The translations under genes and the position numbers were made by a program. This document shows, piece by piece, positions 10,003 through 63,491 of a stretch of DNA of 64,000 nt. The stretch lies in assembly GCA_037439645.1 (NCBI GenBank), contig JBBIVQ010000007.1, positions 9,029-73,028 of the forward strand, read 5' to 3'. The notes under the pieces were generated by a model. It saw only the letters and a list, made by a program, of their open reading frames with translations. It did no database searches and was not told the DNA's origin. Numbering within the stretch: position 1 is the first letter of the stretch; each line of letters begins with the position of its first letter. This DNA is from Deltaproteobacteria bacterium (GTDB lineage Bacteria > Desulfobacterota > Deferrimicrobia > Deferrimicrobiales > Deferrimicrobiaceae).

Positions 10003-10054
10003 TCGGCCTCCGAAGTCGTGTGGCCTGCGGAAACGTCCCGAACGGCGGCGAGCC

Positions 10055-11743: not shown

Positions 11744-11858
11744 CGTGAGAGGAACAGCTCCCGCCGCCGTGCGTGGAATCCCTCTCCCGGGATGAATGCC
11801 GCGCTGTTCACCGTTCCGGAAAATCGTGCATAATTATCCGTAAAGGGGGGGGCGATCC

Positions 11859-32953: not shown

Positions 32954-32955
32954 CG

Positions 32956-39454: not shown

Positions 39455-39539
39455 GGCGTTGAAATGCACCTCGATGAAAGGAGGCGGCGCAGGTTCGGGA
39501 ACCGCGTATCACGGATAAATCCTGATGAAGGAGGTTCGT

Positions 39540-40025: not shown

Positions 40026-40035
40026 GAGGCCATCG

Positions 40036-41520: not shown

Positions 41521-41552
41521 CAACCACCAAAAAGGAACCGGAGGGATAGGCC

Positions 41553-42056: not shown

Positions 42057-42080
42057 TCGCCTGATCGACAGGGTCGCGGC

Positions 42081-42497
42081 ATGAAGGAAGAACGGCTTCT
42101 GGAACGGGTGAGAAACTGCGAGAGGGACTCCGCGCGGCGCGGCGTTGAGGATCCGCAGAGGATCAGCGATTCGGTCCTCGAGCATCTAAGGCGGATCCTC
42201 AACACGCGCCAGGGGTGCGTCCCGATCGCCGACGACTACGGCGTCCCGGAGTTCACGGAGTACCTCCACCTCGGCGCGGAGGTGTACCGGGAACTCGAGA
42301 AGGTTCTCCGGACCACCATCCAGAAGTACGAGCCCCGCCTCAAGGGGGTGCGGGTCACCTTCATCCCGGAGGAGGAGGATCGCCTCGCCCTCCAGCTGCA
42401 GTTCCACGTCGTCGCGAAGCTGGCGAGCGATCCCCGGCTCCAGGTCCAGTTCCAGACGTCGATCGACGGCAACGGCCAGATCCGCATGAAGGATTGA
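42081..42497 (+). CDS. tssE: type VI secretion system baseplate protein TssE (gp25-like)
   Basis: 138 aa. SVLEHLRRILNTRQGCVPIADDYGVPEF is a gp25/GPW lysozyme-like motif. Confidence 0.85.
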   Translation: MKEERLLERVRNCERDSARRGVEDPQRISDSVLEHLRRILNTRQGCVPIADDYGVPEFTEYLHLGAEVYRELEKVLRTTIQKYEPRLKGVRVTFIPEEEDRLALQLQFHVVAKLASDPRLQVQFQTSIDGNGQIRMKD

Positions 42498-42525
42498 GAC
42501 GAACAGGGAAGGATACGGCGAGCGG

Positions 42526-47931: not shown

Positions 47932-50202
47932 ATGGCGCTGACCCGGTTGCGCGGGAACGACGCCCGGTATCTGTTCGAGATCTCCGGGGTGAAGGCGGAG
48001 CTTCTGGTGTCGCGGTTCGACCTGTCGGAGGGGGTGTCGGTCCCGTACGAGCTGGCGGTGGAGCTGGCGTGCGAGGACGAGGTGAAGATGGACGACGCGT
48101 TGGGGAAGGAGGGGTTCCTGACGCTGACGGGGGACGGCGGCGACCGGATCGTTCACGGGGTGGTGGACCGGTTCGAGCACATCGGGAACCGGGGCCGGTT
48201 CGGGCTGTACCGGGCGCGCGTGGTTCCGTACCTGCAGTGGCTGTCGCTGGAGCGGGACTGCCGGATCTTCCAGAACAAGAGCGTTCCCGACATCGTGAAG
48301 CAGGTTCTGCAGGATTCGGGGCTTCCGGCGGACCGGTTCGACTTCCGCCTGCAGGGCAGCTACGCGCCGGTGGAGTATTGCGTTCAGTACCGGGAGACGG
48401 ACCTGGACTTCGTGTCGCGGCTTCTGGAGGAGGAGGGGATCTTCTACTTCTTCGAGCACAGCGACGCGAAGCACCTGCTGGTGTTCGCGGACGGTACGGT
48501 GGCGTACAAGGAGATCGCGGGGGAGAGCGGCGTGACGTACAACTTCTCGCAGGGGCTGGCGCCGAAGGAGGAGTGCGTGTACCGGTTCTCCTTCTCGCGG
48601 CAGGCCCGTTCCGGGAAGGTGACGCGCCGGGACTACAACTTCGAGAAGCCGGGCCTGGACCTGACGAAGGACGAGCAGGCGAAGGTCTTCGAGAAGCGCG
48701 AGGTGTACGACTACCCGGGGCGGTACATGGAGCCGGACCGGGGGAAGCATCTGTCGAAGGTGCGTCTCGAGGAGTCGATGACGTATTACGAGGCGGCGGA
48801 GGGGGAGAGCACGTGCGTGCGGCTGGTTCCCGGGTTCAAGTTCTCGCTGTCGGACCACGACCGCGGGGAGTACAACCGGGAGTACTTTCTGACGAGGCTG
48901 GTCACGCGCGGCGAGCAGCCGCAGGCGTTGCAGGAGGCGTCGGGGTCCGGGAGCGCCGGCTTCAGTTACTCGGGGCGTTTCACGGCGATTCCGGCGTCGG
49001 TTCCGTTCCGCCCGGCGCGGGTGACGCCGAAGCCGGTGGTGGAGGGGATCCAGACGGCGACGGTGACGGGTCCGGGCGGGGAGGAGATCTACACGGACAA
49101 GTACGGGCGCGTGAAGGTCCATTTCCACTGGGACCGGACGGGGGGCCGGGACGAGAAGAGCTCGTGCTGGATCCGGGTGTCGTCGACGTTCGCCGGCGGT
49201 CAGTACGGGTCGATCTTCACTCCGCGGATCGGGCAGGAGGTGGTGGTCGATTTCCTGGAGGGGGACCCGGACCGTCCGCTGATCACGGGGAGCGTGTACA
49301 ACGCGGAGCAGATGCCGCCGTACGATCTGCCGGGGGAGAAGACGAAGAGCACGACGAAGACGAACAGTTCGCTCGGCGGGAAGGGGTTCAACGAGATCCG
49401 GTTCGAGGACAAGAAGGGGGAGGAGCAGATCTTCGTCCACGGGGAGAAGGACGCGGACATCCGGATCAAGAACGACCGTCGGGAGTGGGTGGGGAACGAC
49501 CGCCACCTGGTGGTGGCGCGGGACCAGGTGGAGAAGGTGGAGCGGGACCGTCACGCGGAGGTGGTCCGGGACGAGGTGGTGAAGGTGGGGCAGGACCGCC
49601 ACGTCACGGTGGTGGGAAAGGAGGCGGTCGCCGTCCAGGGATCCCACTCCTTCAACGTCACCGGGACGGTCGTCGAGGTGTTCGGAGGCAGCTGTTGTGA
49701 ACTGGTCAGCAACGAGAACTACGTCAAGGCGATGAGCGTCGTGATCGAAGGGATGACGGGGCTCACCCTCAAGGTGGGGAAGAACTTCATCACGATCAAC
49801 AGCGCGGGAGTGTTCATCTCCGGGACGCTGATCAATCTGAATAGCGGCGGGTCGGCGCTGGAGGGAAAGGGCGCGAAGGCCGTTCCCCCGTCGGTGCCTC
49901 TCGCGGCGGCGATCGCCGCGAATACCGTGGCGGGGAAGGATACGACGTACGGAGACAAGCCGACTCACAAGGAGGCGGCGGAGGACGAGGACGAAGAGGA
50001 GAAATCGTGGGTCGAGATCGAGCTGGTCGACGAGAACGGGGAGCCCGTTCCCGGCGAGCGGTACCGCGTGGAGACCCCCGACGGGAAGGTTGCGGAGGGT
50101 ACCCTCGATGAGAAGGGGTTCGCGCGGATCAACCGGGTGAAGCCGGGGAACTGCAAGGTCACCTTCCCGAAGCTCGACAAGGACGCCTGGGAGAAGGCGT
50201 GA
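47932..50202 (+). CDS. vgrG: type VI secretion system spike protein VgrG with ~80-aa C-terminal extension
   Basis: gp27/gp5-like regions (FFEHSD..., DRPLITGSVYNAEQMPPY, repeated SGG/valine-rich beta-helix). The C-terminal extension SWVEIELVDENGEPVPGERYRVETPDGKVAEGTLDEKGFARINRVKPGNCKVTF resembles a small beta-sandwich domain. Confidence 0.9.
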   Translation: MALTRLRGNDARYLFEISGVKAELLVSRFDLSEGVSVPYELAVELACEDEVKMDDALGKEGFLTLTGDGGDRIVHGVVDRFEHIGNRGRFGLYRARVVPYLQWLSLERDCRIFQNKSVPDIVKQVLQDSGLPADRFDFRLQGSYAPVEYCVQYRETDLDFVSRLLEEEGIFYFFEHSDAKHLLVFADGTVAYKEIAGESGVTYNFSQGLAPKEECVYRFSFSRQARSGKVTRRDYNFEKPGLDLTKDEQAKVFEKREVYDYPGRYMEPDRGKHLSKVRLEESMTYYEAAEGESTCVRLVPGFKFSLSDHDRGEYNREYFLTRLVTRGEQPQALQEASGSGSAGFSYSGRFTAIPASVPFRPARVTPKPVVEGIQTATVTGPGGEEIYTDKYGRVKVHFHWDRTGGRDEKSSCWIRVSSTFAGGQYGSIFTPRIGQEVVVDFLEGDPDRPLITGSVYNAEQMPPYDLPGEKTKSTTKTNSSLGGKGFNEIRFEDKKGEEQIFVHGEKDADIRIKNDRREWVGNDRHLVVARDQVEKVERDRHAEVVRDEVVKVGQDRHVTVVGKEAVAVQGSHSFNVTGTVVEVFGGSCCELVSNENYVKAMSVVIEGMTGLTLKVGKNFITINSAGVFISGTLINLNSGGSALEGKGAKAVPPSVPLAAAIAANTVAGKDTTYGDKPTHKEAAEDEDEEEKSWVEIELVDENGEPVPGERYRVETPDGKVAEGTLDEKGFARINRVKPGNCKVTFPKLDKDAWEKA

Positions 50203-50912
50203 TGTGCGCGGCCGGTTCCAAACCGAAGCCCCGCCCGGTTCCGCCCGCGAAGCCCGTAGGGGACGAAGGATACGAGGTGAAGGCGGGCGAGTGCCTCAAC
50301 GTCATCGCCGACCGTTTCGGCTTCTTCTCCAAGACCCTCTGGAACCATCCGAAAAACGAACGGCTGAAAACCGAGCGGAAAGACCCCAACGTCCTTTTGC
50401 CCGGCGACCGGGTCTTCATTCCCGAGAAGAGTCCGCGGGAAGAGTCGGCCGCAACGGAGCAGAGGCAACGCTTCCGGCGCAAGGGCGTCCCCTCCCGGAT
50501 GAAGATACGCCTCCAGCAGTGCGGGACCGCGGAGCCGTACGCGAACAAGCGGTACGTCCTGGACGTCGACGGGAAACTGTCGGACGGAACGGTGGACGGC
50601 GCCGGGAACGTCGATCTTCCGATCCCGCCCGGCACGAGGAAAGCCGTTCTGACCGTGGGAGAGGGGGAGGCGAAGGAAAGCTTCGCCCTCGATTTCGGCG
50701 CGCTCGATCCGCCCGATTCGATCCGCGGAGCGCAGCAGCGGCTTCGGAACCTCGGGTTCCTTTCCGGCGAGCCGGAGGAGAAGTGGAGTCCCGCCAGCGA
50801 GTCCGCGCTTTTCCGATTCCAGGCCCAGCACGTCGTGACGGGCGACGAGGAACCTTCGGGGGTCTTCGACGAGAAGACGAAGGAGAAGCTCAAGGCGCTT
50901 CACGAATGCTGA
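50202..50912 (+). CDS. LysM + beta-sandwich + peptidoglycan-binding (PG_binding_1-like) protein, paralog A
   Basis: Start overlaps the vgrG stop. LysM-like YEVKAGECLNVIADRFG...LLPGDRVFIP. C-terminal RGAQQRLRNLGFLSGEPEEKWSPASESALFRFQAQH resembles PG_binding_1. No signal peptide. Confidence 0.7.
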   Translation: MCAAGSKPKPRPVPPAKPVGDEGYEVKAGECLNVIADRFGFFSKTLWNHPKNERLKTERKDPNVLLPGDRVFIPEKSPREESAATEQRQRFRRKGVPSRMKIRLQQCGTAEPYANKRYVLDVDGKLSDGTVDGAGNVDLPIPPGTRKAVLTVGEGEAKESFALDFGALDPPDSIRGAQQRLRNLGFLSGEPEEKWSPASESALFRFQAQHVVTGDEEPSGVFDEKTKEKLKALHEC

Positions 50913-50951: not shown

Positions 50952-53900
50952 ATGGCCGATTCGAAATTCACGGTGTCGCAGAGGGCGGACCAGTCGGGGG
51001 TGAACCTCCTGGACAAACGCCCTCCCCTGAAGATCGTCCAGGTCCATTTCCACCATCGGTACTACAGCGGGAAGACGCCGCGGCTCTTTCCCCATCCTTC
51101 GAACAGGATTGCGATCCATTGGCTGGAAAAGGAACTTTTCCCGAAAGGCGACGCCGACAGGGACGGCGGTTCGTCCGACTTCCATTTCGTCTGCAGCCCG
51201 GTCACGCAGCATGCGGAAAAGGCCGGACTCTGGGTGAGCATGATCAACGCGAGCGAGATCCCCGACGGGTTGTACATACTGGAGGTCCCGTTCCAAAGGA
51301 CGATCCCGGGAGGGGGGTCCGAAGAGAAGACCTTCTGCCAGATGGTCCGTATCCGGGCGAAAGTGCTGGCCGTCGGCCCGGACGGAGTTCCGTTCGGCCC
51401 GGATTCCCGCACCGAGCCCGTGGCCTGCGACTGGTTCGCGGGGGACGGGGTGAGCCTCGAGGAGTCGCTGTACAACCTCTTCGCGTACAGGTACGAGGAC
51501 AGCATCGGAGTCCTCCTTGCGGAAGACATGAAGAAGGTCGCGGAGGGTGGAGAGCCCGAGTCGGGGTTCAAGACGTTCCTCGGCGTCGCGGACACGTTCA
51601 AGGAAGCGGCCGCCGGCCTGATCGGCCTCGTGAAGCTCGATTTCGGCTGGTACAAGACCGTCAAGAAGGTCGACTCCTACATGAAGGGGAAGGGGGCGCC
51701 GTCCGTCCTGCGTCTTTTCGAGAAATCGGCGCTCGGGAAGTCGGCGCTGAAGTGGTCGGACGGGAAGATCAAGCAGAACGCGATCGGGATGCTGGTCGAC
51801 AAGGAGGGGAGACAGGTCAAGGAAGTCGACACCCTCCGGAAACTCGAGTACGTCTTCGGCAAACGCGCGAAGGCGGTGGACCACGCCCTGGAAAAACCGC
51901 GCGACCGGTTGAAGGGGTTGAGCGTATCCGAGGTCGGCGAGATCGCTGGCTCCATCGTCGATCTCCTGGGGAACGCGGTCGACGCGTACGAGGTGATGGA
52001 CGGCTTCGTCAAGGCGGACGCCGCCCGGATGGATTTCATGCAGCACCTAACCCGGATGGTCGCCACCAGGACGCGGGAGATGGAGTGGGAGATCGGATAC
52101 GCCGGGGCCGGTTCGGAGGAGCGGAGGAAGTTGCGGGACCGCGCCGCCGCGCCGCCGTGGGAGCGTCACGGCTTCTTCGTGCGCGGGGATCTGACCGCGC
52201 TGGAAGCGTTGAAGATGAAGACCGATCACGCCGCCGGGGAGGCGCATCTCGCCGCCGCGAAATTCACGCTGAAGATGTCGGCGTCCGCCTACGGGATCTC
52301 CGGGCTGGGAGCCGTCGTCGGGGAGAAAGCGGAGAAGGCGTACGAGACGGCGAAATCGGTCGCCTCCTTCGTCGACAAGAACCTCGGTTCGAACGACATC
52401 GAGCGCTGGGTGAAGGAACTTGAAACCCTCTGGCACGACGAAATGGCGTACGCGTCGAACAACAACGAGATCCTTCACCGGTTCATCGGGATGCACCCGC
52501 CCTATACGGAGCGACAGACGATCGCGATGCAGTTCCTGATGCGTGCGAAGGTCCTGTACGGATTGAAGCGGCTGATCGCGATGTGCGGCCCGGCGGTCGA
52601 CAAGGACCGATACGCTTCCGTGATCTCGATGAAGGCGTACATGAAGGACAAGAACGACTGGCTGATCCGGGCCGGCAATTTCCACAAGAACGTGGACGCC
52701 CTGGGGATCAAGGAGTATATCCGCGATTTCTGTCTCGCGGACCGGTTCTGGGTGCGGAAGTCGCACGCCCACCACGACTGGATCCACCACTTCGTCCAAC
52801 TGGATCACGGCGATGCGGAGTACCGCGACGAAGTCCTCCGGAAGAAGGATCCCGGGGACGACAAGTTGTGGTTCGAGGTCGACTTCCAGCGGTACTGGCC
52901 GATCCACTTCATGGACATCGAGGACGTGCACAAGTTCTGCGAGCGGTTTTCGAACGACTGGTCCCCGCTCAAGAGCAAGGACGTGGAACGATGCTACCTT
53001 CAGCGCGGCGAGGCGAAGTGGAGCCCGATCCCGGGATCCGGCGACCGGGCGCTCGAGATCACCCGCTGGGTCGATCTCGCGGACGGCGAGGTGATCGACA
53101 GCGAGACGCCCGTCCGCGCGGTGATGATCTTTTCGGGGACGGCCAGGGTGGCCACCGGGGTCCCGGTGCGGTTCCAGGTCGAGCGGACCGACGGATTCAA
53201 CGTGCCGGGCCCCGCCTACAACACCATCGCCCGCCCCTGCTCGAAGGAGGACGGGGAAGCGATCGGCGTCGAGAAGGGACGCTACGTGGCGATCCTCGAC
53301 TTCACATACTCCTACCGGAAGAAGCAGGCGAAGAATTTTCCGGAGGAACCCGCGAAGATCTACCACGGCATCAAGCCGATGGTCGAGAGCATCGCCTGGG
53401 CGGACGTGGTGAAGGCGACCGAGCTCGCGAAATTCTCCGCCGACTGGCTCTACCACAAGGTCAGTCCGCAGGAGATGACGATGGCGGTCCGGTACGCGGT
53501 CGGAGACGGAAACGTCGCCGGCTACGCGGAAAAGAAGGGCAGGATCTTCTCGACCACGACGGAGATCCGGATGGTGCCCGACGCGGTCGCCCCGCACAAC
53601 GTTGCGGAAAAGGAGATGTTCCACGAACGGAACGAGGCGAAGTTCGGCGACCGTGAATTCCTCCAGCGGTTATGCGCGGAAGCTCCGCCTCCGAAAATGA
53701 AGTTACCTGAGGTGCAGAAAGCGCTCATCCAGTACCTCCGCGGAGAGACCTGGGAAAACCTTTCCGAAAAGACGGTCCTCCAGTATACGGACGCGGTACG
53801 GGTCATCGTCTTCGTGGACGACCTGCTGGACGGCGTTCCGCTTACCGTTCGCTTCGAGCGGACGGACCAGGGCGTCGACGGCCCGTTCTACACTTCCACC

Positions 53901-54452
53901 GTGATCGAGCCCCTGAGGAAGTACGGGTTCCCGGGAAAACTCGGGTACGTGATCTGTCCCTATTATCATTACGCGGTTTGGGACGAAAACATGAGAACCG
54001 GGAAGTTGTCTTTCTACAACGACGGGAACCCGATCTTCGCCGTCAAACCGGTGTGCAAGGTGAGCACCTCCTCGGAATGGATCAACAAGAGCGGATCCAG
54101 GTACCCGACCTACTGGAAGGGGTATACGTTCAAGATCCAGTTCAACCTCGGGACGAACAATCCGAACCCGGGGATCCTGGGGTGGGGCTGGAAAAGCATC
54201 GGGCCGGACGGGATCCGCACCATCCCGTACGATATTCCCTTCGATCTGGAGGGAAGCACGTACACCTCCGAAGCGAGGGATTTCGTCGCCGAGGGGATCA
54301 TCGGCGTCCATTCGAACGACGTCTACGAGTCGAAGCGGCTTTGCACGACGCGCCTGGTCATCGAGAAGAAAGGAAACATCGAAAGGACGAAGATGCTGTC
54401 CAGATTCTTTTCGTATCCGAACTACGCGGATATGACGACGTACTCGTACTGA
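50952..54452 (+). CDS. large orphan protein (1166 aa) between VgrG and PAAR; candidate T6SS cargo effector
   Basis: Single uninterrupted ORF with a GAGGGGAAG RBS. No recognisable domain or repeats. Contains a His-rich stretch (RKSHAHHDWIHHFVQLDHGD). By eye the codon composition is more AT-rich than the core T6SS genes. Confidence 0.6.
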   Translation: MADSKFTVSQRADQSGVNLLDKRPPLKIVQVHFHHRYYSGKTPRLFPHPSNRIAIHWLEKELFPKGDADRDGGSSDFHFVCSPVTQHAEKAGLWVSMINASEIPDGLYILEVPFQRTIPGGGSEEKTFCQMVRIRAKVLAVGPDGVPFGPDSRTEPVACDWFAGDGVSLEESLYNLFAYRYEDSIGVLLAEDMKKVAEGGEPESGFKTFLGVADTFKEAAAGLIGLVKLDFGWYKTVKKVDSYMKGKGAPSVLRLFEKSALGKSALKWSDGKIKQNAIGMLVDKEGRQVKEVDTLRKLEYVFGKRAKAVDHALEKPRDRLKGLSVSEVGEIAGSIVDLLGNAVDAYEVMDGFVKADAARMDFMQHLTRMVATRTREMEWEIGYAGAGSEERRKLRDRAAAPPWERHGFFVRGDLTALEALKMKTDHAAGEAHLAAAKFTLKMSASAYGISGLGAVVGEKAEKAYETAKSVASFVDKNLGSNDIERWVKELETLWHDEMAYASNNNEILHRFIGMHPPYTERQTIAMQFLMRAKVLYGLKRLIAMCGPAVDKDRYASVISMKAYMKDKNDWLIRAGNFHKNVDALGIKEYIRDFCLADRFWVRKSHAHHDWIHHFVQLDHGDAEYRDEVLRKKDPGDDKLWFEVDFQRYWPIHFMDIEDVHKFCERFSNDWSPLKSKDVERCYLQRGEAKWSPIPGSGDRALEITRWVDLADGEVIDSETPVRAVMIFSGTARVATGVPVRFQVERTDGFNVPGPAYNTIARPCSKEDGEAIGVEKGRYVAILDFTYSYRKKQAKNFPEEPAKIYHGIKPMVESIAWADVVKATELAKFSADWLYHKVSPQEMTMAVRYAVGDGNVAGYAEKKGRIFSTTTEIRMVPDAVAPHNVAEKEMFHERNEAKFGDREFLQRLCAEAPPPKMKLPEVQKALIQYLRGETWENLSEKTVLQYTDAVRVIVFVDDLLDGVPLTVRFERTDQGVDGPFYTSTVIEPLRKYGFPGKLGYVICPYYHYAVWDENMRTGKLSFYNDGNPIFAVKPVCKVSTSSEWINKSGSRYPTYWKGYTFKIQFNLGTNNPNPGILGWGWKSIGPDGIRTIPYDIPFDLEGSTYTSEARDFVAEGIIGVHSNDVYESKRLCTTRLVIEKKGNIERTKMLSRFFSYPNYADMTTYSY

Positions 54453-54467
54453 AAAGGAGGCGTATAA

Positions 54468-54788
54468 ATGCCGCCGCAGGCGAGAATCGGAGACTTGTCG
54501 CAATGCCCGGCCGATTTCCACGGGACGCTGGCGTGCCCTCGACAGGTGATCGGACCGGCGATCCAGGGGTCGCCCGACGTCCTCGTGAACTTCCTTCCTG
54601 CCGTCCGGGTGGGGGACATGGGGATCCACGCGGCGTGCTGCGGTCCCAACACGTGGAAGGCGGCGATGGGGAGCAAGACCGTCTTCATCAACGGCATGCC
54701 CGCGCACCGGCTGGGGGACATGGATCAGCATTGCGGCGGCGTCGGGACGATGGTCGGGGGGAGCCCGAACGTTTTCACGGGCGGGTGA
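54468..54788 (+). CDS. PAAR-domain protein (T6SS spike tip)
   Basis: AAGGAGG RBS. 106 aa with PAAR-like motifs (PAVRVGDM..., PAHRLGDMDQHCGG). Confidence 0.85.
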   Translation: MPPQARIGDLSQCPADFHGTLACPRQVIGPAIQGSPDVLVNFLPAVRVGDMGIHAACCGPNTWKAAMGSKTVFINGMPAHRLGDMDQHCGGVGTMVGGSPNVFTGG

Positions 54789-54819: not shown

Positions 54820-55449
54820 GTGCCAAGCAGACACAAGGTCCGACAGGGAGAGGACGTTTCCGGCATCGCCGCGGAATACGGCGTACCGGTGAAGAAGGTG
54901 GTCGACCACCCCGACAACGCGTCGCTGAAAAGCGAGCGGAAGGGGCTCACGATCCTTCGCCCCGGGGACGTCGTCGTGGTTCCGGACCGGGAGGACCGCG
55001 AAGAGACCGCGGGGACGGGGCAGAAGACCCGCTTCCGGAGAAAGTCGGGGACGACGATGCTCCGGCTCAAACTGCTCGACGACGATTTCCGGCCGCGGGC
55101 GAACGTCAAGTACAAGCTCGTCGTCGGGGGAAAGACGTCGGAGGGGTCGACCGACGGCTCCGGAATGCTGAAGGAGCCGGTACCGCCCGGTGCGGCGCAG
55201 GGGCACCTGATCCTGGACGGGAAGGACGTTCTCCCCCTCTCGTTCGCCGCCCTCGATCCGGCCGATTCCCTGAGCGGGGTCCGTCAAAGGCTGTCCAACC
55301 TTGGTTTCGCCGCGGGGGACGGCGACGGCCCGATGGACGGGAAGACGCGGGGAGCGCTCCGGCGCTTCCAGAAAACGCACGGGCTGAACGAAACGGGTGA
55401 TGCGGATGCCGCGACGAAGGCGAAACTCGAGGAAGTCCACGGCACCTGA
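54820..55449 (+). CDS. LysM + beta-sandwich + peptidoglycan-binding protein, paralog B
   Basis: GTG start with a GGGGAG RBS. Same architecture as 50202..50912 (HKVRQGEDVSGIAAEYG...LRPGDVVVVP, then GVRQRLSNLGFAAGDGDGPMDGKTRGALRRFQKTHGL). Confidence 0.7.
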   Translation: MPSRHKVRQGEDVSGIAAEYGVPVKKVVDHPDNASLKSERKGLTILRPGDVVVVPDREDREETAGTGQKTRFRRKSGTTMLRLKLLDDDFRPRANVKYKLVVGGKTSEGSTDGSGMLKEPVPPGAAQGHLILDGKDVLPLSFAALDPADSLSGVRQRLSNLGFAAGDGDGPMDGKTRGALRRFQKTHGLNETGDADAATKAKLEEVHGT

Positions 55450-55467: not shown

Positions 55468-55980
55468 TTGGCGGGCGGGCACGCGGTTCCGAGGAGGGGG
55501 GAGGGGGAGGGCGGAAACGCGGCGGTACGCCTGCGGGAGATCCGGGTGTACTTCCAGAAGTTCCCCGGCACGGCGGCCGGCGCCGGTATCGATCATCTGG
55601 AATATTCGGTGACCGTCGGCGACGCGCCGCCCGTCCAGGGGCGGACGGGGAGCGACGGGATGATCGCGATATCGCTCGCTCCGGGCGCCACCGCGACCTT
55701 GCGGGTCCTTGGAACCGAGTACGCGCTCAGCCTGATGGATGAATTGTTCCCGATCGAGGAGATGCGGGGGGTGCAGCAGCGCCTGGAGATGCTGGGATAC
55801 TTCTCCGGGCCCCTGAAGGGGGACGACGCGCGCGCGGACACCTACGTGAACCCCGACGTTGCGACGGAACGGGCGATCCTCGATTTCCAGGCGGACAACG
55901 GCCTGTTCGCCGATGCGCAGTTCGGTTCGACGTCTTCAAGAACGCTGAAGAACGTGGTGCGGAGCGCAAGGGGGGAGTGA
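55468..55980 (+). CDS. beta-sandwich + peptidoglycan-binding protein, paralog C (no LysM)
   Basis: Middle and C-terminal parts align with paralogs A and B (GVQQRLEMLGYFSGPLKGDDARADTYVNPDVATERAILDFQADNGL). Start uncertain (TTG at 55468 after GGGAGG). Confidence 0.5.
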   Translation: MAGGHAVPRRGEGEGGNAAVRLREIRVYFQKFPGTAAGAGIDHLEYSVTVGDAPPVQGRTGSDGMIAISLAPGATATLRVLGTEYALSLMDELFPIEEMRGVQQRLEMLGYFSGPLKGDDARADTYVNPDVATERAILDFQADNGLFADAQFGSTSSRTLKNVVRSARGE

Positions 55981-55990: not shown

Positions 55991-57184
55991 ATGTTCCTGT
56001 TTCCGGTCCATAAATGGATGAGGGTCGTGCCGGTCCGGTTCCAACGGGCGCCAGACGCGGACGATCCTTCCGTGGAGAGCGGACCGCCGGATGCGAACGC
56101 CCCGGATCCCGACGACCGCGGGTTCCTCCCGGCCGACCAGGGGTGCGCGGTTCTGCCGGTGGGGATCGACGAATCGCTGGACGAGACGCGTCACCCGGAG
56201 ACGCGCGTCCGGTTGATCCGTCAGAACATGGAAGAGGCCGGGGTCCTCCATGTGGTCTCCTCCGTCCCGGACCGACTGGAGGTCACCGTCCCCGCCCCCG
56301 GCGCCGCCCTGCCCTCCGCCCGGAGGATGATGGTCAAGTTCAAGGCGAAATCCGCGGGGGAGGCGTACCTCGAGGTCCGGTTCGGTTCGGCGGAGGGGCC
56401 GGTCATCCACCGCCTCCGCGTGGTCGTAAGCCCACCGCGGGACGTGCGTCTCGCGGCGCACGTTCCGACGGTCAACGGGGCGGCGGTCAACGATCCCTCG
56501 GGGGACCCGGGGGCCGTCGTGCCGTCCCGATCCTTCCGGAGCGACGACGAGATCCTCGGATTGATCGAGGAGGTCAACCAGATCTACTTCCCGTACGGGA
56601 TCCGGTTCATCCCGGAGCCCGTGATCGACCGGGCCGGCGTCCTGGATTTCAGGCACCAGGGGTTCATACACGTCCTGACCGGCGAATTCAATCGGACCAC
56701 GGCCCTGAACCGGGTCGCCGGGGCCGTGAACATGTATTTCGTCCCCCAGATCCAGTTCGCCGATACGACGATCGTGAACCACTGGGGAGGGGCGGCCAAC
56801 AGTTCGCGGGGAGCCCCCCGGACATTCGGCTCGATCATCGCGGACGTGGCGGTCGGGGGGCAGACGGTTTCCCACGAACTCGGGCATGTCCTGAACCTCG
56901 TGAAAGACAGGGCGTATCAGCACGTGAACACGAGGATGGATCCGGCCCACCCCGGGAGCGGAAGGAACGTCCGGGACGACATCGTCTCCCGCCGGCGCCT
57001 GATGTGGGCATACACTGATTTTCTTCATATTGACGGGATGGGATACCGTGACGATGTCGGATACGACATCGGAAACCCCGGATGCATGTTGACCGTAAAG
57101 AACATCGACGGCGACCCGACGGACGACGAGATGGCGGAAGTGATGCGGAACGCGGCGCGGCTCGCCGCCCCGCCCAGGCCGTGA
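55991..57184 (+). CDS. HExxH zinc metallopeptidase; candidate T6SS effector
   Basis: 397 aa. VSHELGHVLNL zinc-binding motif. No signal peptide. Sits in the cargo region after the PAAR and PG-binding genes. Confidence 0.65.
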   Translation: MFLFPVHKWMRVVPVRFQRAPDADDPSVESGPPDANAPDPDDRGFLPADQGCAVLPVGIDESLDETRHPETRVRLIRQNMEEAGVLHVVSSVPDRLEVTVPAPGAALPSARRMMVKFKAKSAGEAYLEVRFGSAEGPVIHRLRVVVSPPRDVRLAAHVPTVNGAAVNDPSGDPGAVVPSRSFRSDDEILGLIEEVNQIYFPYGIRFIPEPVIDRAGVLDFRHQGFIHVLTGEFNRTTALNRVAGAVNMYFVPQIQFADTTIVNHWGGAANSSRGAPRTFGSIIADVAVGGQTVSHELGHVLNLVKDRAYQHVNTRMDPAHPGSGRNVRDDIVSRRRLMWAYTDFLHIDGMGYRDDVGYDIGNPGCMLTVKNIDGDPTDDEMAEVMRNAARLAAPPRP

Positions 57185-58065
57185 AAAGGAACGTATTACG
57201 CGCACTGTTCGCGGTCGGCTGGGTGGTCCTGTCGCTCGCGGCCGCGAATTGCCACGGAATCGAAAAAGAATCCGGCAGGCTTCACAAGCCGGCCGGGGAG
57301 GAAACGGGGATGAGCGCACAGGCGGAGTTGGAACGCCTTCTCGCGGATGGGGATTTTCGGGCGGTCGAGGCGGCCGCCGCGATGGGCGATGCCGCTGCTC
57401 CCGCCCTTCGAAAGGGCGCGGGGATGCCGGGGTACCGGTCGCGACAGGTCGCGATGGCGTGCGCCGGGAAGATCGGAGGGGACGTCGCGGGGGAGATCCT
57501 CGCCCTCGGGTTGAAGGACGGGAACGTCAACGTGCGGGTGACCGCGGCGGGGCAGCTGTCCGTGAATCCCCCCGAATACGCGAAGGATGCGGTCCTTTCG
57601 ACGCTGGTCCGAAGCACCGAGACGGATGTCCGGGAGATGCTCGCGTATTCCGCGGGGTATTTCCCCGGAGAACGGACAATCGCCGTCCTTCGATCGGTCG
57701 CTTCCGGAAAAGAGGTCCTGGCCTCGAACGCAAGGTTGGCGCTGGCACGGCTGGGAGACCCGGCAGGCAGGGATGCCGTCCTGAACGACCTCGCCTCTCC
57801 CGATCCGCTGGTCCGGTACGATACCTTGGGCGGCTTGCGGTACGTGAACGACCCGTCGCTGGCGGATCGCGTCAAGCCCCTGCTGCTCGATACGAAGGAG
57901 GCGCAGGCGATCGGCCCGGGAGGCGGGTGGAGGCATCGCCGGGTTTGCGACCAGGCGGTCGACACGCTGGTGTATCTGTTGAAACTGAAGGTCCCGTTTC
58001 CGACGGGCGAGGAAACGATCTACACCGAGGAACAGTTGCTCCACGTTCGGGACCTGACCCGGTAA
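57181..58065 (+). CDS. periplasmic HEAT/PBS-lyase-repeat protein; candidate immunity protein
   Basis: GTG start overlapping the peptidase stop. Signal peptide VKRNVLRALFAVGWVVLSLAAANCHG. Repeats of the form LALGLKDGNVNVRVTAA and DPLVRYDTLGGL. Confidence 0.55.
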   Translation: MKRNVLRALFAVGWVVLSLAAANCHGIEKESGRLHKPAGEETGMSAQAELERLLADGDFRAVEAAAAMGDAAAPALRKGAGMPGYRSRQVAMACAGKIGGDVAGEILALGLKDGNVNVRVTAAGQLSVNPPEYAKDAVLSTLVRSTETDVREMLAYSAGYFPGERTIAVLRSVASGKEVLASNARLALARLGDPAGRDAVLNDLASPDPLVRYDTLGGLRYVNDPSLADRVKPLLLDTKEAQAIGPGGGWRHRRVCDQAVDTLVYLLKLKVPFPTGEETIYTEEQLLHVRDLTR

Positions 58066-58072: not shown

Positions 58073-58939
58073 ATGCCCTGGCCCCCGAACGACATGTTCG
58101 TCCAGTTGGCCAAGATGAATTTCGTCGCCAAGGGGATCAAGCTCCCGGTCGATTGGAAAGAGATGACGGACAAGATCACCGATCCTTCGAACCGTGCGGG
58201 GCGCGACATGTACCCCGAGGCGTTCAAGCCCCACGAACGGACGGTTCCGCCGAATTCTCCCATGAACCTGTTCCGTGAAGCGACCGCGAACAAGTACCAT
58301 GTCGGAACGGCGAAGGAGATAGGGGAACAGTACGCGAAGTTCATCGAGGGGATCTGTGGAGCGATCTCCTCGGCCATCGGCCAGTGGTTGAGCGCCGCCA
58401 CGGTCGTCGGCGTGAACATCGTCGGGCCGGTCGGCATTCTTCACCCGGGCTGCGTGGTCGGTCCGCCGCTCATCCCCCTGATCCTTTCGTCCGCTCCCAA
58501 GGCGACCCCGATGGAACTGAAGTTTTCGATGGCCGTCGCGAACGCGCTCGGGACGATGTGGCTCCCGTGGCACATCGGCCTGGCCGGCGTCATCATGTAC
58601 CCCGCCTTCGCCGCGGTGCCTGCGCCGGTGGCGCCTCCGATGCCGAACGTCCCCGTCCCGCTCGTCGCGTGCGCCTCTCCGGGCGAGGCGGGACTCTCTC
58701 CGTCGACGCTGAAAGCGCTGATGGATGCGAACCTCGCCGACCCGACCGCGCTGCACGCATCGGACCTGTTCGACGCGATTTCGAAGGCGTTCAACACGGT
58801 GTTCCTGATGTTCAAGGGGACGACCCTGGTGAAAAACGTGATCGGCACGGGGCCGGTTCCCACGTTCGCGCCTCCGGTCGTTCCGGTCGGTCCCGTCCTG
58901 GGCGGGATCGGGAACGGCCCACCCGGGTGCCTCTCCTGA
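58073..58939 (+). CDS. hypothetical protein (288 aa) in T6SS cargo region
   Basis: GC3-rich ORF with no recognised domain. Hydrophobic central segments (VVGVNIVGPVGILHPGCVVGPPLIPLIL). Confidence 0.45.
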   Translation: MPWPPNDMFVQLAKMNFVAKGIKLPVDWKEMTDKITDPSNRAGRDMYPEAFKPHERTVPPNSPMNLFREATANKYHVGTAKEIGEQYAKFIEGICGAISSAIGQWLSAATVVGVNIVGPVGILHPGCVVGPPLIPLILSSAPKATPMELKFSMAVANALGTMWLPWHIGLAGVIMYPAFAAVPAPVAPPMPNVPVPLVACASPGEAGLSPSTLKALMDANLADPTALHASDLFDAISKAFNTVFLMFKGTTLVKNVIGTGPVPTFAPPVVPVGPVLGGIGNGPPGCLS

Positions 58940-58963
58940 CATGGCAGGCGCGGAGGAAAGACC

Positions 58964-59995
58964 TTGAAGATCGGGAACGAGACTCCCTTCGAAGCGGAGG
59001 CGCTTCCGTTCCTCGATGGGGAAGGGAAGCCGTTCCTGACGGTCGTCGTGAAGGGGACGTTCGCGATCGTTCCCGAAGGCGTCGCCGCGGTGGACGGCGC
59101 GCAGATCCCGATCCTGTACGGGGACGAACACACCGACCCGGAAAAGGGAGGGAGCCCGAAGTTCGAGGCGGACACGGCCCCGTTCAAACCGAGGGCCGAT
59201 GTTCTCCTGGTCGGCAAGGCGCACGCGCCGGGGGGGAAACCGGTGCGTTGGCTGGACGCCGGGCTTCGCGTCGGGGCGTTGCAAAAGGTCGTTCGCGTCT
59301 TCGGGGATCGCGCGTGGATCTCCGGAGCGGGGAAATTATCCGCTCCCGTGTTCACCGATCCGGAGCCGTTCACGGAGATGCCGCTGGTCTACGAGAGGGC
59401 GTTCGGCGGGATAGATGCGGAGTCCGGCGGATTCTGCGCGGAGAACCCGGTCGGATGCGGTTTCTATACGAGGAAATCGCCTGCCAGGATCGACGGGGCG
59501 CCGCTTCCGAACATCGAGCACGCATCCAGGCCGATCCGTTCCTGGACCGACCATCCGGGACCTGCGGGGTTCGGCTGCGTCGCGAAGGGATGGGCTCCGC
59601 GGGTCCGCCATTCGGGAACATACGACGAGACGTGGGAGAGGGAGCGATCCCCACTCCCTCCGGCCGACTTCCGGTACGACTTCTACAACGCCGCTCCCCC
59701 CGAACTCCAGGTAGAAGGGTATCTCCGGGGGGACGAGGAGATCCTCCTGCTGAACCTCGAGAAGGACGGAAAAGTCCGTTTCCGGTTGCCGGGGATCGCA
59801 CCGGCGGCCACCATCGAAAAGACGGAGCGTTGGAGCGGACCGTCGTGGAACGAGCCGGCGCCCATGCGCCTCGACACCCTTTGTCTCCTGCCGGAAGAGG
59901 GGCGATTATTCCTCGTGTGGCGGGGACGCTGTCCCCTGGCGGACCTCTCCGCTCTGGAGGTGGAGACCGTGCGCGTCGTCGCGGCAATTCCATGA
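58964..59995 (+). CDS. DUF2169-family protein (T6SS adaptor-associated family)
   Basis: TTG start after a GGAGGAAAG RBS. MKIGNETPFEAEALPFLDGEGKPFLTVVVKGTFAI is the characteristic DUF2169 N-terminus, a family found next to vgrG/PAAR cargo genes. Confidence 0.7.
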   Translation: MKIGNETPFEAEALPFLDGEGKPFLTVVVKGTFAIVPEGVAAVDGAQIPILYGDEHTDPEKGGSPKFEADTAPFKPRADVLLVGKAHAPGGKPVRWLDAGLRVGALQKVVRVFGDRAWISGAGKLSAPVFTDPEPFTEMPLVYERAFGGIDAESGGFCAENPVGCGFYTRKSPARIDGAPLPNIEHASRPIRSWTDHPGPAGFGCVAKGWAPRVRHSGTYDETWERERSPLPPADFRYDFYNAAPPELQVEGYLRGDEEILLLNLEKDGKVRFRLPGIAPAATIEKTERWSGPSWNEPAPMRLDTLCLLPEEGRLFLVWRGRCPLADLSALEVETVRVVAAIP

Positions 59996-60011
59996 CACGA
60001 AGGGAGTCCGC

Positions 60012-60791
60012 ATGAGGACGATCTGGTTGACCTCTCTCGGCCGGTCCGAGGAAAACGTGAAGAAGGTGGTTGCCCTCCTGAAGCCGTACGGTGTCCCGGT
60101 CCAGGGCCATTTCTGGGTCGATGACCTGCCGAAGATCGCCTGGATGGCCCCCCGCGAGGAGATGATCAAGTCCGACGTGGCCGCCTGGGTGATCCTCGCC
60201 ACGGCGGAGACGTTCGCTGCCCCCTCGGTGCGTCGCGGTCTTTCCCTCCTTGCGATCACGGTGCAGGCGAAAAAGGGGCTTTCGTTCCCCATCGTTCTTC
60301 TCGCGGAGGGTGGGGGAGCGCCGCCCGCGCCGCCGTTTCCCACGCCGCTCGCGGGAGCGGAAATCCTGTCGGCGGCGGACCCGGGGCTGGCGGCGAAGAT
60401 CGTCGCGATGCTCCACACACCGCGCAAGGACCCGGCGGCGGAATACCGGATCGACGTGTACGGGAGCACGCATATCGGTCTCTGGTTCGAGGTGGGTCCC
60501 CGGGTCGGCCGGTGGGATGGTGCGATGTTCGGCGTCGCCGGAAGCGAGATCCTCTTCCACGGGAGCGGGCCGATGGAGATGCTCCCGGCGCAATGCACTC
60601 TCGAATGGCCGGTGAAGGGGATGAAACTCTCCCACGGTGACCGGGAGTACGAGGCGTGGGGTGTCCGGAACGGGTTCGAATCCCGCAGTTCGTATTTCGT
60701 GAAGGTCAAGGAGTGCCCCGAGTCGGTCCTCTTCGGTCCCTTTCCCGCGGAGGGGGAGGCCGCCGATTTGTACGTGGTCGCGCTAACCTGA
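60012..60791 (+). CDS. hypothetical protein (259 aa)
   Basis: MRTIWLTSLGRSEENVKKVVALLKPYGVPVQGHFWVDD... has a Rossmann-like/TIR-like N-terminal feel, but there is no confident assignment. Confidence 0.45.
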   Translation: MRTIWLTSLGRSEENVKKVVALLKPYGVPVQGHFWVDDLPKIAWMAPREEMIKSDVAAWVILATAETFAAPSVRRGLSLLAITVQAKKGLSFPIVLLAEGGGAPPAPPFPTPLAGAEILSAADPGLAAKIVAMLHTPRKDPAAEYRIDVYGSTHIGLWFEVGPRVGRWDGAMFGVAGSEILFHGSGPMEMLPAQCTLEWPVKGMKLSHGDREYEAWGVRNGFESRSSYFVKVKECPESVLFGPFPAEGEAADLYVVALT

Positions 60792-60870
60792 TGAACGCGA
60801 AGGGCAATTTGTATTGGCGGACGGGATATGGTATCCAAGTAGGGAAAAACCACGCCAGGAAGGACGACCG

Positions 60871-61635
60871 ATGAACCCGGATGCGATCGCCAGGAAAAAC
60901 CTCGACAACGCCGAGTTCGTGCAACTTCGTCGCGCGACCGACAAGATCGCGTCCTTCCTGAACAAGCGCCTGTCGGGCCACCTCGATGTCCTGAAATCCC
61001 TCTTCATCGCGCGTGCGCTTCTCGGTTCGTACGTCAAAAGCGCTTCGATGGAGGACGTGCCGGTATCCGACAAAGCGTTCGCCGACCTTCAGGAACGGTT
61101 CGCGGCGGTTTGCGAGAAGCCGTTCGGTCTCCCGAGGAAGCTCCAGACGCCCCTGCCTCCGATCGCGACCCAGATCGACGCGTCCCCCTTTCGGTATTCG
61201 CTCGCGATCCCCGGGGAGGCGAAACCGGTTGTCGTCTCCTCACCGACCCGATGGGTCCTGTCGTACCGGGGGGAGTGCCCGCTTTCGCGGATCCGTTCGA
61301 TGGTCGCGGGAACCGAGTCCCGCGTTCCCGACGAGATGCGGCAAGGATTGCTCAACCATATCGCGTTGGTGGTCTACCTGAAATATTTCCCGACGGTGGG
61401 GCAGCTCCTCTCGGACCTGCGGTACAGCGTGGAAGTCGAAACCTTGCCGGACCTCGGAGGGCTCCCGGTGGTGATCCTCACCGCGCCGCTTCCCACGTTC
61501 CTGCCTGCGGACGATTTCATACAGCAAGTCACCCAGCTCTCGGGGATCGCCGCGTTCCAGGAGATCATCGACCGCGAGGCGATCGATCGGATCCCCGATC
61601 TGTTGAAGGATTCGCTCCGCAACCTCCTCTCCTGA
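60871..61635 (+). CDS. hypothetical protein (254 aa)
   Basis: ATG at 60871 with an AGGAAGGA RBS. No recognised domain. Confidence 0.45.
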   Translation: MNPDAIARKNLDNAEFVQLRRATDKIASFLNKRLSGHLDVLKSLFIARALLGSYVKSASMEDVPVSDKAFADLQERFAAVCEKPFGLPRKLQTPLPPIATQIDASPFRYSLAIPGEAKPVVVSSPTRWVLSYRGECPLSRIRSMVAGTESRVPDEMRQGLLNHIALVVYLKYFPTVGQLLSDLRYSVEVETLPDLGGLPVVILTAPLPTFLPADDFIQQVTQLSGIAAFQEIIDREAIDRIPDLLKDSLRNLLS

Positions 61636-61691: not shown

Positions 61692-63491
61692 ATGCCCAAT
61701 TTCCAGCCGACCCGATTCGGGAAATATCTCCTCCTCGAAAAACTCGCGACGGGCGGGATGGCCCAGTTGTACCGGGCGAAGATCATCGGCGTCGAGGGGT
61801 TCGAGAAGTTCATCGCCATCAAGCAGATCCTTCCCCATCTCGCCCACGAGGAGGAGCTGATCACCTCCTTCATCGACGAGGCGAAGCTGGCCGCCCTCCT
61901 GAACCACCAGAACATCGTGCAGATCTACGATTTCGGCTCCATGGAAAATTCGTACTTCATCACGATGGAGTTTCTTCACGGGAAGGACCTTCGCGGAGTC
62001 AATGCGAAGGCGAAAGAGAAGGGGATCCCGATCAGCCTCGAAAATTCGCTGTTCCTGATCTCCAAGGTGTGCGCCGGGCTCGATTACGCCCACAAGCTGA
62101 AGGATTTCCAGGGGAAATCCCTGAACATCATCCACCGGGACATCTCCCCCCAGAACGTCTTCCTCACCTACCAGGGGGACGTCAAGATCGTGGACTTCGG
62201 GATCGCCAAGGCGGCGAGTCAGAGCACGATCACCCAGGTCGGGATGATCAAGGGGAAGGTCGCGTACATGTCGCCGGAGCAGGCGGCGGGGAAAGTGATC
62301 GACCACCGGTCCGACATCTTCGCCACGGGGATCCTCCTCTATGAACTGGTCGCGGGCGGCCGCATGTTCAAGGGGGACGACACCCTCCAGATCCTGTCGA
62401 AGGTCCGGGATGCCGATTTCACTCCGCTCGGGACGTTGAAGGGCGGGCTTCCCGAAAAATTGTACGACATCGTCGAGAAGGCGCTCGCCAAGGAGCCGGA
62501 AAACCGGTACCAGTCGTGCGGCGACATGCAGGCCGATATCGAAGAGTGCATCTTCCGGCTCAACTTGAGGCCTTCCGGTCGCACCCTGGCCGACTACCTC
62601 GGGTTGCTGTTTGCCGAAGAGATCGAGGCGGAAGGGAAACGGATGGCCGACACCGCGGAGGCGGGGGCGGTGAGCGACCGGGCCCGCGACGCGGAAGCGG
62701 AGCGACGGGCGGCAGCCGTCCCTTCGGCGCCGCCTCCTCCCGCCGACAGGTCGGAGACGCCACCCCCGTCTCCGCCGAAGCCCGCGCGAAATACCGCGAC
62801 TGCGTCGAGCGAACCTGCCAAGGGCGGGAAAAAAGGAATTTTCGCCGCCGTCGCGGGGGTGGCCGTAGCCGCTCTTCTCGCCGGCGGATACCTGCTGACG
62901 GGGAAGGGAAAGGAGACGGCCGGCACGGCCGCGACGGCAACGGCAACGGCGACGAGCCCTTCGGCTGCGGTCCCGGCGGTCCCCTCGTCTCCCCCTCCCG
63001 CCGCGGCGAAGGCGGCACCCGCGCCGTCACCGTCCGCGGAAGCGTCGGAACTTGTGCGGAAAGGCACGGGACTCGTCGAGTCGAACCCGGCGGAGGCGAA
63101 GTCCATCCTCCTGCAGGCGATCGCGAAGGATCCGCGGAGCGTCCAGGGACATTTCCAGCTCGGACACGCCTACGTGAAGATGAAAGAGTACCCGGAAGCG
63201 CTCGCCGCTTACGCGAAGGCGGGCGAGGTCGACCCGAAGTTCGCGGACGCCTTCTTCAATATGGGCTACGTTCACGCCGTCCGGAAGGAGTACGCCAAGG
63301 CGGAGGGGATGTACGAGAAGGTGGTCGCGCTCTCCCCCATGTACCTTGACGAAGCGTTGTACAACCTCGGGATGATCCAGGAAAAGATCGGAAAGCGGAA
63401 GGAGAGTCTCCGGAACATCGAGAAGGCTCTGTCGATCAATCCCGGAAACGAACCGGCGAGGAAAGCCCTCGCCAGGTTGAAGGGGAAATAG
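61692..63491 (+). CDS. Ser/Thr protein kinase with C-terminal TPR repeats
   Basis: Hanks-type kinase: GKYLLLEKLATGGMAQLYRA, AIKQI, HRDISPQNVFL, DFGIAKA, SPEQ. Then a Pro/Ala-rich linker, a TM segment and TPR repeats (AYAKAGEVDPKFADAFFNMGYVH...). Confidence 0.85.
   Translation: MPNFQPTRFGKYLLLEKLATGGMAQLYRAKIIGVEGFEKFIAIKQILPHLAHEEELITSFIDEAKLAALLNHQNIVQIYDFGSMENSYFITMEFLHGKDLRGVNAKAKEKGIPISLENSLFLISKVCAGLDYAHKLKDFQGKSLNIIHRDISPQNVFLTYQGDVKIVDFGIAKAASQSTITQVGMIKGKVAYMSPEQAAGKVIDHRSDIFATGILLYELVAGGRMFKGDDTLQILSKVRDADFTPLGTLKGGLPEKLYDIVEKALAKEPENRYQSCGDMQADIEECIFRLNLRPSGRTLADYLGLLFAEEIEAEGKRMADTAEAGAVSDRARDAEAERRAAAVPSAPPPPADRSETPPPSPPKPARNTATASSEPAKGGKKGIFAAVAGVAVAALLAGGYLLTGKGKETAGTAATATATATSPSAAVPAVPSSPPPAAAKAAPAPSPSAEASELVRKGTGLVESNPAEAKSILLQAIAKDPRSVQGHFQLGHAYVKMKEYPEALAAYAKAGEVDPKFADAFFNMGYVHAVRKEYAKAEGMYEKVVALSPMYLDEALYNLGMIQEKIGKRKESLRNIEKALSINPGNEPARKALARLKGK

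Follow-up and report, generated by a model that had tools for sequence, protein, structure and literature searches.

Periplasm-acting type VI secretion system (T6SS) metallopeptidases blocked by envelope-exposed immunity proteins include the C-terminal metallopeptidase of VgrG2b, with PA0261, and Tpe1-Tpi1 of Acinetobacter baylyi, and the immunity proteins of Tpe-Tpi pairs are soluble, lipoprotein or membrane-anchored depending on the lineage (PMC6899460). In Ketobacter (Kalk_10460) and others, the gene of a stand-alone LysM protein comes directly after vgrG, with the effector gene next, and the effector bound VgrG only with the LysM protein present; PG_binding_1, found either on its own gene or as the N-terminal part of a toxin, has been proposed for the same recruitment role (PMC10673891). 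In the Tla3-Tle3-Tli3 system of Pseudomonas aeruginosa, a cytoplasmic partner binds both the periplasm-acting toxin and the TTR domain of VgrG, and there is a separate exported immunity protein (PMC6560169). The Imm-HEAT immunity class of polymorphic toxin systems comprises HEAT proteins that are encoded beside a toxin and are proposed to neutralize it by binding; the listed partners are Ntox34 and Tox-REase-7, not metallopeptidases (PMC3482391). Here, we analyzed a 64,000-nucleotide stretch of contig JBBIVQ010000007.1 from a Deltaproteobacteria bacterium (the window), in which the gene for an HExxH peptidase is followed immediately by that for a HEAT-repeat protein. We consider it likely, with a probability of roughly 0.78 given the sequence evidence, that the two are a T6SS cargo effector and its cognate immunity protein.

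The peptidase-HEAT pair and its T6SS setting

The pair lies within an operon that opens with VgrG and sits downstream of a complete T6SS core cluster, the genes of which (TssK, TssM, TssA, TssB, TssC, Hcp, TssE, TssF and ClpV) occupy positions 31226 to 47897 on the same strand; the setting is that of a vgrG/PAAR locus. Features are on the forward (+) strand unless stated otherwise. From VgrG onwards, the spacing between genes ranges from a 4-nt overlap to 56 nt, and the order is VgrG, LysM/PG_binding_1 paralog A, a 1166-residue protein, PAAR, LysM/PG_binding_1 paralog B, PG_binding_1 paralog C (PG_C), the peptidase, the HEAT protein, a 288-residue protein, DUF2169, two unknown proteins and a Ser/Thr kinase with TPR repeats. 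The peptidase gene (55991 to 57184; 397 residues) ends in TGA at 57182 to 57184, and the long form of the HEAT gene (57181 to 58065; 294 residues) begins with GTG at 57181 to 57183, so that stop and start overlap as GTGA. An earlier note, made from the letters of the window, had described a cytoplasmically synthesized HExxH peptidase without a signal peptide and an exported HEAT protein whose GTG overlaps the peptidase stop, and both its coordinates and its description hold by Kyte-Doolittle hydropathy, Pfam HEAT_2 and the GTGA junction.

The peptidase N terminus is not hydrophobic, its highest 15-residue Kyte-Doolittle mean within the first 60 residues being 1.23, compared to 2.25 in the HEAT protein. 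Conservation begins at residue 1 in each of the 24 aligned homologues, and none has a signal peptide, as fits a protein that travels by neither Sec nor Tat. A conserved N-terminal segment (residues 1 to 50) is followed by an immunoglobulin-like beta-sandwich (about 53 to 165) and a metzincin-like catalytic domain (about 180 to 397). Within the latter, VSHELGHVLNL covers residues 293 to 303, the HExxH codons lie at 56873 to 56887, and the zinc site H295-E296-L-G-H299 ... H311 (HELGHVLNLVKDRAYQH) spans 56873 to 56923. H295, E296, G298, H299 and H311 are invariant across the 24 diverse homologues, as are M1, F17, R19, D41, R43 and G44 among the first 45 positions. Set against the HExxHxxGxxH/D motif, the HExxH part never varies, Asn takes the place of Gly, which is also so in ADAMTS, and an invariant His stands at +12; this His311 sits after a short insertion, and in the distant members P0094 and P0095 (HELGHVLTLEH) it is found at the canonical +6.

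The catalytic domain has a metzincin fold, with mirolysin, ulilysin, ADAMs and fragilysin as the nearest folds. In a sequence profile search of the PDB, the peptidase segment HELGHVLNLVND aligned with the ADAMTS-1 motif HELGHVFNMPHD (E=0.025), and, apart from one unrelated chain, the only matches were metzincins of the ADAMTS, snapalysin and ADAM types. Pfam Reprolysin_5 gives sub-threshold or weak matches in 10 of the 24 homologues (best E 4.2e-6); the window peptidase itself has no Pfam match at E<=0.1 and none in NCBIfam, and does not reach the Reprolysin-like (M12B) gathering threshold. Because the residues are invariant, the fold is that of a metzincin and 10/24 homologues match Reprolysin_5, the motif is not a chance HExxH. 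A Met-turn candidate, RRRLMWAY, has Met338 in most members and Leu in some, and lies in a region with a predicted local distance difference test score (pLDDT) below 50. In sum, the peptidase is a divergent metzincin-like enzyme, placed in no named peptidase family, with catalysis predicted. A word-indexed search returned 95 homologues, none of them named, and a profile search of 1.84 billion cluster representatives (50% identity) returned 481 at E<=1e-3, of which 277 also passed E<=1e-10. If the effector assignment is right, this would be a widespread toxin family new to the T6SS arsenal, with 481 clusters, no Pfam or NCBIfam model and a distribution in poorly studied environmental phyla.

The cassette recurs in other genomes. 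A scan of one genome per species yielded 22 loci, to which three more (L025 to L027) were added via metagenome look-ups. The 22 come from metagenome-assembled genomes (MAGs) of Deltaproteobacteria/Desulfobacterota, from Acidobacteriota (Terriglobia, Pyrinomonadales), Pirellulales, Phycisphaerae, Fibrobacteraceae and Zixibacteria, and from a MAG labelled Heliobacteriaceae, about six phyla in all. Gene order, read by tblastn of all window proteins against the loci, is VgrG, B-type LysM/PG_binding_1 protein, PG_C, peptidase and HEAT protein, and it is invariant wherever the contig is long enough: the B-type protein is always between VgrG and PG_C, PG_C is always immediately 5' of the peptidase, and the HEAT gene is 3' of the peptidase in every related locus that extends past it. 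The order is still kept around the L026 peptidase, with 27% identity to that of the window. The genes of L025 are arranged as in the window, and a 3.37-Mb contig (L027) reads TssF, TssG, ClpV, VgrG, LysM/PG_binding_1, PG_C, peptidase, HEAT, HEAT, PAAR. In six loci (L005, L010, L011, L014, L018 and L027), PAAR comes after the HEAT gene. Across positions 1 to 17227 of L026, three VgrG cassettes follow one another; their cargoes all differ, and the first two have their own PG_binding_1 protein, and two adjacent VgrG genes are present in L002 (3 to 4193) and L025 (1 to 2891). One further locus of the same type (L028, the context of P0122) is a frameshift-ridden assembly and was set aside as uninformative.

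The HEAT protein (HEAT_2, 2.9e-8, 34.3 bits against a cut-off of 27.7) is the only one of 13 operon proteins with a hydrophobic N-terminal core (2.25 over 15 residues; the others reach at most 1.57). Its predicted signal or lipoprotein-like peptide, MKRNVLRALFAVGWVVLSLAAANC (57181 to 57252), has a basic n-region, the hydrophobic core and Cys24. HEAT_2 is present in all 27 homologues detected, and across loci the N-terminal sequences diverge with the basic n-region and hydrophobic core kept, usually together with a lipobox-like Cys. Most of these peptides end in a lipobox Cys (..YSGC, ..FSTC, ..IYGC, ..LVSC, ..LGSC, ..AIGC), and a few resemble signal peptidase I substrates rather than lipoproteins. 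Judged by such sequence features, export of the HEAT protein is well supported. Two tandem HEAT-family genes are present in five loci (L004, L009, L018, L027 and L026), and an orphan HEAT gene (P0121, 41% identity) with a lipobox signal peptide is found on a 398-kb marine contig with no peptidase, VgrG or PG_binding_1 gene within 10 kb. In their strict adjacency, tandem duplication and orphan copies, the HEAT genes behave as immunity genes usually do. A disulfide or zinc switch at Cys94 and Cys256 (RRVCDQAVDT) was considered; both are invariant in the HEAT alignment, yet both are replaced in the L027 paralogs, so that they are not essential. Taken together, the operon setting, the recurrent cassette, the HEAT signal peptides and the tandem and orphan HEAT copies support the proposal, made in the earlier note, of a T6SS effector with an exported immunity protein.

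An alternative is that the peptidase is a secreted protease aimed at something other than bacteria, for instance eukaryotic prey, the matrix of a host or proteins used as nutrients. The HEAT protein would then be a self-protecting inhibitor, with no part in warfare between bacteria, that guards only against leakage or fire from siblings. A parallel is the serralysin-type protease AprA and its inhibitor in the periplasm, AprI. The nearest folds named above are those of extracellular protein-degrading metzincins, bacteria of soil and sediment, with an unclear lifestyle, are among the carrier phyla, and a eukaryotic-type Ser/Thr kinase closes the operon. However, the LysM and PG_binding_1 modules that are co-encoded with the peptidase, or fused to it, indicate the bacterial cell wall, and an exported immunity protein in 100% of loci together with a peptidase-free orphan copy fit defense against other bacteria, making a nonbacterial target improbable.

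Several observations weigh against the pair being an active periplasmic effector and an exported immunity protein. In the peptidase family, the canonical third metzincin zinc-ligand position is Lys or Asn, and the C-terminal subdomain (residues 303 to 379) is modelled at pLDDT below 50; for these two reasons we infer catalytic competence from conservation only. Metzincins are normally protein endopeptidases rather than murein hydrolases. No fusion to VgrG, PAAR or Rhs was seen among the top 150 peptidase-family representatives; one of these would have proved delivery by the T6SS independently. The lipobox of the window HEAT protein, AANC, is noncanonical, with Asn at -1 (pattern [LVI][ASTVI][GAS]C), and a signal peptidase I site at AAA|N is equally possible, so that lipidation is not certain. 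GTG 57181 has no Shine-Dalgarno site (+1.6 kcal/mol), and is reachable solely via termination-reinitiation from the peptidase gene. Finally, the NCBI annotation of the source contig holds only a 251-residue form of the HEAT protein (P0301), which starts at an internal ATG at 57310 and would be cytoplasmic.

Two candidate starts of the HEAT gene

The internal ATG (57310 to 57312, Met44 of the long form) is preceded by a Shine-Dalgarno sequence, GGGGAGGAA, at 57295 to 57303, the whole element covering 57295 to 57312, and is a candidate start for a 251-residue cytoplasmic isoform. Its predicted duplex energy with the anti-Shine-Dalgarno sequence is -11.0 kcal/mol, on a par with the best sites of the operon, those of VgrG (-10.1) and PAAR (-11.6). 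Since the HEAT gene of the source contig is annotated from this ATG, the signal peptide is absent from its public record. The 294-residue form is called in several public assemblies (P0096, 100% identical), and the metagenome calls P0106, P0113 and P0116 to P0119 are of 251 to 252 residues.

Met44 lies just 5' of the first HEAT helix, after the variable signal peptide and linker, and is nearly invariant. When 30 HEAT open reading frames (ORFs) from all loci were aligned to the family hidden Markov model, an ATG occupied the Met44 column in all 18 of the single-copy loci with a linked peptidase, offset by two residues in L019. Where a locus has two HEAT copies, the first lacks a signal peptide and begins at the Met44 column or very near it, and in the second, which is exported, the column is filled by Ile, Ala, Ser or Gln; in the orphan it is filled by Ala. 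The mean anti-Shine-Dalgarno energy at the Met44-column ATG, over 11 collapsed lineages, is -6.9, compared to -2.4 at random in-frame positions and -2.8 at other in-frame ATGs (P<1e-5 by resampling for a stronger site). For the exported members of two-copy loci, together with the orphan, the values are +0.4, +0.2, +1.9 and -1.9. The segment upstream of the ATG also has the marks of a gene: the composition of 57181 to 57309 follows a coding pattern (GC1 0.65, GC2 0.47, GC3 0.74), the upstream segment is exactly 132 nt and indel-free in four relatives at 74 to 93% peptidase identity, and the frame is open with signal-peptide features in approximately 11 independent lineages, AT-rich ones included, despite little sequence identity. 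From this evidence, the 43 codons upstream of Met44 look translated.

It could be argued that only the 251-residue cytoplasmic protein from ATG 57310 is real, that it serves as antitoxin or adaptor for a cytoplasm-acting or unstable effector and that the apparent signal peptide is an untranslated ORF extension. The contrast between a strong Shine-Dalgarno site at the internal ATG and none at GTG (-11.0 and +1.6 kcal/mol) is what such a protein would predict, as are the 251 residues of the NCBI annotation and of several gene calls and the separate cytoplasmic HEAT paralogs of five loci. This account is nevertheless hard to sustain, and less probable than a nonbacterial target, as the upstream frame stays open with its n-region, hydrophobic core and usual lipobox Cys in the approximately 11 independent lineages, the coding GC3 pattern and the lack of indels among relatives speak for translation, and two-copy loci carry an exported copy besides the cytoplasmic one.

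The simplest reading of the sequences is that both HEAT starts are used and give exported and cytoplasmic isoforms, with the roles split between two genes elsewhere. A fuller proposal is that one gene makes a stop-start-coupled exported (lipo)protein and, from the Shine-Dalgarno-preceded Met44 ATG, a cytoplasmic isoform, that two paralogs do so elsewhere, that the orphan has lost the internal start and that, with two-step LysM/PG_binding_1 loading, this forms a widespread T6SS system; we hold this composite tentatively, at a little short of even odds. If it is true, a widespread T6SS toxin system exists in Acidobacteriota, Planctomycetota, Desulfobacterota and Fibrobacterota, and an internal Shine-Dalgarno-ATG after a signal peptide would be a simple genomic signature for similar cases. 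Immunity by two isoforms or two paralogs would show a promiscuous protease toxin held harmless on both sides of the inner membrane. A full-text search of the literature found no T6SS immunity protein with two isoforms, the only dual-isoform case being Fha, which is not an immunity protein.

Candidate loading modules, proposed mechanism and neighboring genes

Two proteins encoded just upstream of the peptidase may connect it to the spike. Paralog B (54820 to 55449; 209 residues), which has no signal peptide, combines a LysM domain (0.0013), a beta domain and PG_binding_1 (5.4e-12), and the B-type LysM domain is above the Pfam cut-off in the orthologues of L003, L015 and L019. PG_C (55468 to 55980; 170 residues) consists of a beta-sandwich and a three-helix PGB1 domain (PG_binding_1 7.7e-5, 23.2 bits against a cut-off of 23). 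N-terminal fusions of PG_C to the peptidase exist in P0074 to P0089 and in ~20% of more distant representatives, with PG_binding_1 scores of up to 58.5 bits, and in a modelled natural fusion beta strands (28 to 97) and helices (109 to 183) are joined to the peptidase by a low-confidence linker (186 to 215). Because natural fusions exist, PG_C and the peptidase appear to act as one unit. The earlier note had linked PG_C to the peptidase as a module that may target it to peptidoglycan; the fusions bear out the tie, but peptidoglycan targeting is not the sole option, since a loading module is possible (PMC10673891). By analogy, paralog B is a candidate bridging module between VgrG and effector, and PG_C may be a loading module instead of, or besides, a peptidoglycan-targeting one.

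VgrG (47932 to 50202; Pfam Phage_GPD 3.5e-92, Gp5_trimer_C, Phage_base_V), the first gene of the cargo operon, ends in a TTR/CarboxypepD_reg-like domain (approximately residues 683 to 756, with a weak CarboxypepD_reg match at 698 to 745). In other loci, matches confined to the final ~70 residues of the window VgrG, that is, to the TTR-like domain, occur apart from the main VgrG match and directly 5' of the LysM/PG_binding_1 genes: L004 444 to 659 and 2155 to 2358, L006 2950 to 3177 and 8559 to 8747, L007 1077 to 1337, L008 494 to 736, L012 8503 to 8712, and L013 8554 to 8754. As these TTR-like-only matches directly precede LysM/PG_binding_1 genes, they suggest that the VgrG C-terminal TTR-like domain and the LysM/PG_binding_1 proteins are specifically paired.

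Two further ideas about these modules were set aside. A role of PG_C as a prodomain of the PG_binding_1 type found in matrix metalloproteinases is not supported; PG_C has no Cys, and the 30-residue linker of the fusion model is of low confidence, so that no docking can be read from it. An apparent PG_binding_1-peptidase-HEAT triple fusion from a metagenome (P0258, 687 residues) retains the HEAT signal peptide internally and is most likely a read-through or frameshift artifact. Its gene order is that of the cassette, here in a lineage that is AT-rich and more distant.

We propose the following sequence of events. B and PG_C would form a bridge between the peptidase and the C-terminal TTR-like domain of VgrG, a link that is probable because a LysM protein is needed for effector-VgrG binding elsewhere and PG_binding_1 shows the same genetics (PMC10673891), and both may accompany the peptidase and, after delivery, anchor it to the sacculus. 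The spike would carry the complex into the periplasm of a neighboring Gram-negative cell, where the peptidase would cleave a cell-envelope substrate. Peptidoglycan-associated or periplasmic proteins are the favored candidates, though somewhat short of an even chance, and peptidoglycan stem peptides are an unlikely substrate. Sister cells would be shielded by the exported, mostly lipoprotein-type HEAT protein, which would bind and block the peptidase and which in the window would be translated through GTGA stop-start coupling to the peptidase gene. The Shine-Dalgarno-driven start at Met44 would probably give a cytoplasmic isoform that neutralizes or chaperones the peptidase in the producer; a need for cytoplasmic neutralization, if real, fits a broadly acting protease or cleavage of cytoplasmic murein precursors.

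That the peptidase is rather a T6SS accessory enzyme of the TagX/MltE type, remodeling the peptidoglycan of the producer for assembly with the HEAT protein as regulator, accords with its location at the main T6SS cluster and its PG-binding partners but is very improbable, the most so of the readings considered, because without a signal peptide or transmembrane segment it could not reach its own periplasm by Sec, because it fills the VgrG-to-PAAR cargo slot, being in L026 the cargo of one of three differing VgrG cassettes, and because the second LysM/PG_binding_1 paralog of the window precedes an unrelated 1166-residue cargo, a modular and polymorphic pattern unlike that of a core component.

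That second paralog, A (50199 to 50912; 237 residues; PG_binding_1 7.6e-8; no signal peptide), has a start that overlaps the VgrG stop and 39% identity to paralog B, and it lies 5' of a different cargo, the 1166-residue protein (50952 to 54452), which is itself followed by the spike-tip protein PAAR (54468 to 54788; PAAR_motif 4.2e-13). The 1166-residue protein has no match in Pfam, NCBIfam or PDB sequences and no obvious immunity gene adjoining it; L002 keeps it at ~91% identity, and in L025 the corresponding slot holds an ORF of 1160 residues with no Pfam match. We take it to be a probable second cargo effector, served by a LysM/PG_binding_1 module of its own. Positions 58073 to 61635 encode a Gly/Pro/Ala-rich, partly hydrophobic 288-residue protein, then a DUF2169 adaptor (1e-98) and unknown proteins of 259 and 273 residues, in an order common to L001, L002 and L025, and look like a third cargo module. 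The last gene of the operon (61692 to 63491) encodes a PknB-like Ser/Thr kinase with C-terminal TPR repeats, and on the marine contig L023 a kinase-TPR gene (5825 to 8794, minus strand) likewise lies close to the orphan HEAT copy; it could be a PpkA-like regulator, or the association could be coincidence. Elsewhere in the window, G+C content dips locally to 0.584 at 10001 to 12000, compared to ~0.65 to 0.68 in the remainder, overlapping a 562-residue minus-strand ORF (10055 to 11743).

Comparison with known systems

With Tpe-Tpi the pair shares an HExxH zinc peptidase and an immunity gene that adjoins the toxin gene in a vgrG island (PMC6899460). There was no sequence or profile similarity between the window peptidase and the Tpe/VgrG2b C-terminal family or the Pfam Tox-MPTase families (Pfam at E<=0.1; PDB profile search), and for that reason we do not count it as a Tpe-Tpi member. 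Its fold is nearest to pappalysin/adamalysin metzincins, it is a separate cargo with LysM/PG_binding_1 partners and not a C-terminal extension of VgrG, and its proposed immunity protein is a HEAT-repeat protein. Compared to the pappalysin/adamalysin metzincins themselves (mirolysin 6r7u, ulilysin 2cki, ADAM/ADAMTS), the peptidase has 11 to 18% identity, Lys or Asn for the third His and a His at +12; it lacks a signal peptide and the known kinds of pro-peptide, carries an N-terminal Ig-like domain and is proposed to be delivered by the T6SS. A full-text search of the literature found no T6SS metzincin effector.

The genetics described for LysM/PG_binding_1 recruitment modules (PMC10673891) are found here as well, both as stand-alone genes and as PG_binding_1-peptidase fusions. 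Unlike the modules described, two would act in series in the cassette, a LysM-PG_binding_1 protein and then the PG_binding_1-only PG_C, each made of a beta-sandwich and a PGB1 domain; the cassette is in Desulfobacterota, Acidobacteriota, Planctomycetota and Fibrobacterota, and its cargo is a metzincin. The recruitment principle would thereby extend to new phyla and a new toxin class. Where Tla3-Tle3-Tli3 pairs a cytoplasmic protein with a separate exported one, the two would here belong to the same HEAT family, as two paralogs or possibly two isoforms, and a peptidase replaces the lipase as toxin. The likeness to Imm-HEAT is by description, HEAT repeats next to a toxin, and the toxin class differs.

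Our comparative data support a pair that works like Tpe-Tpi and stands outside that family. What is new is a predicted metzincin effector with HEAT immunity, and immunity in two compartments is the candidate novelty.

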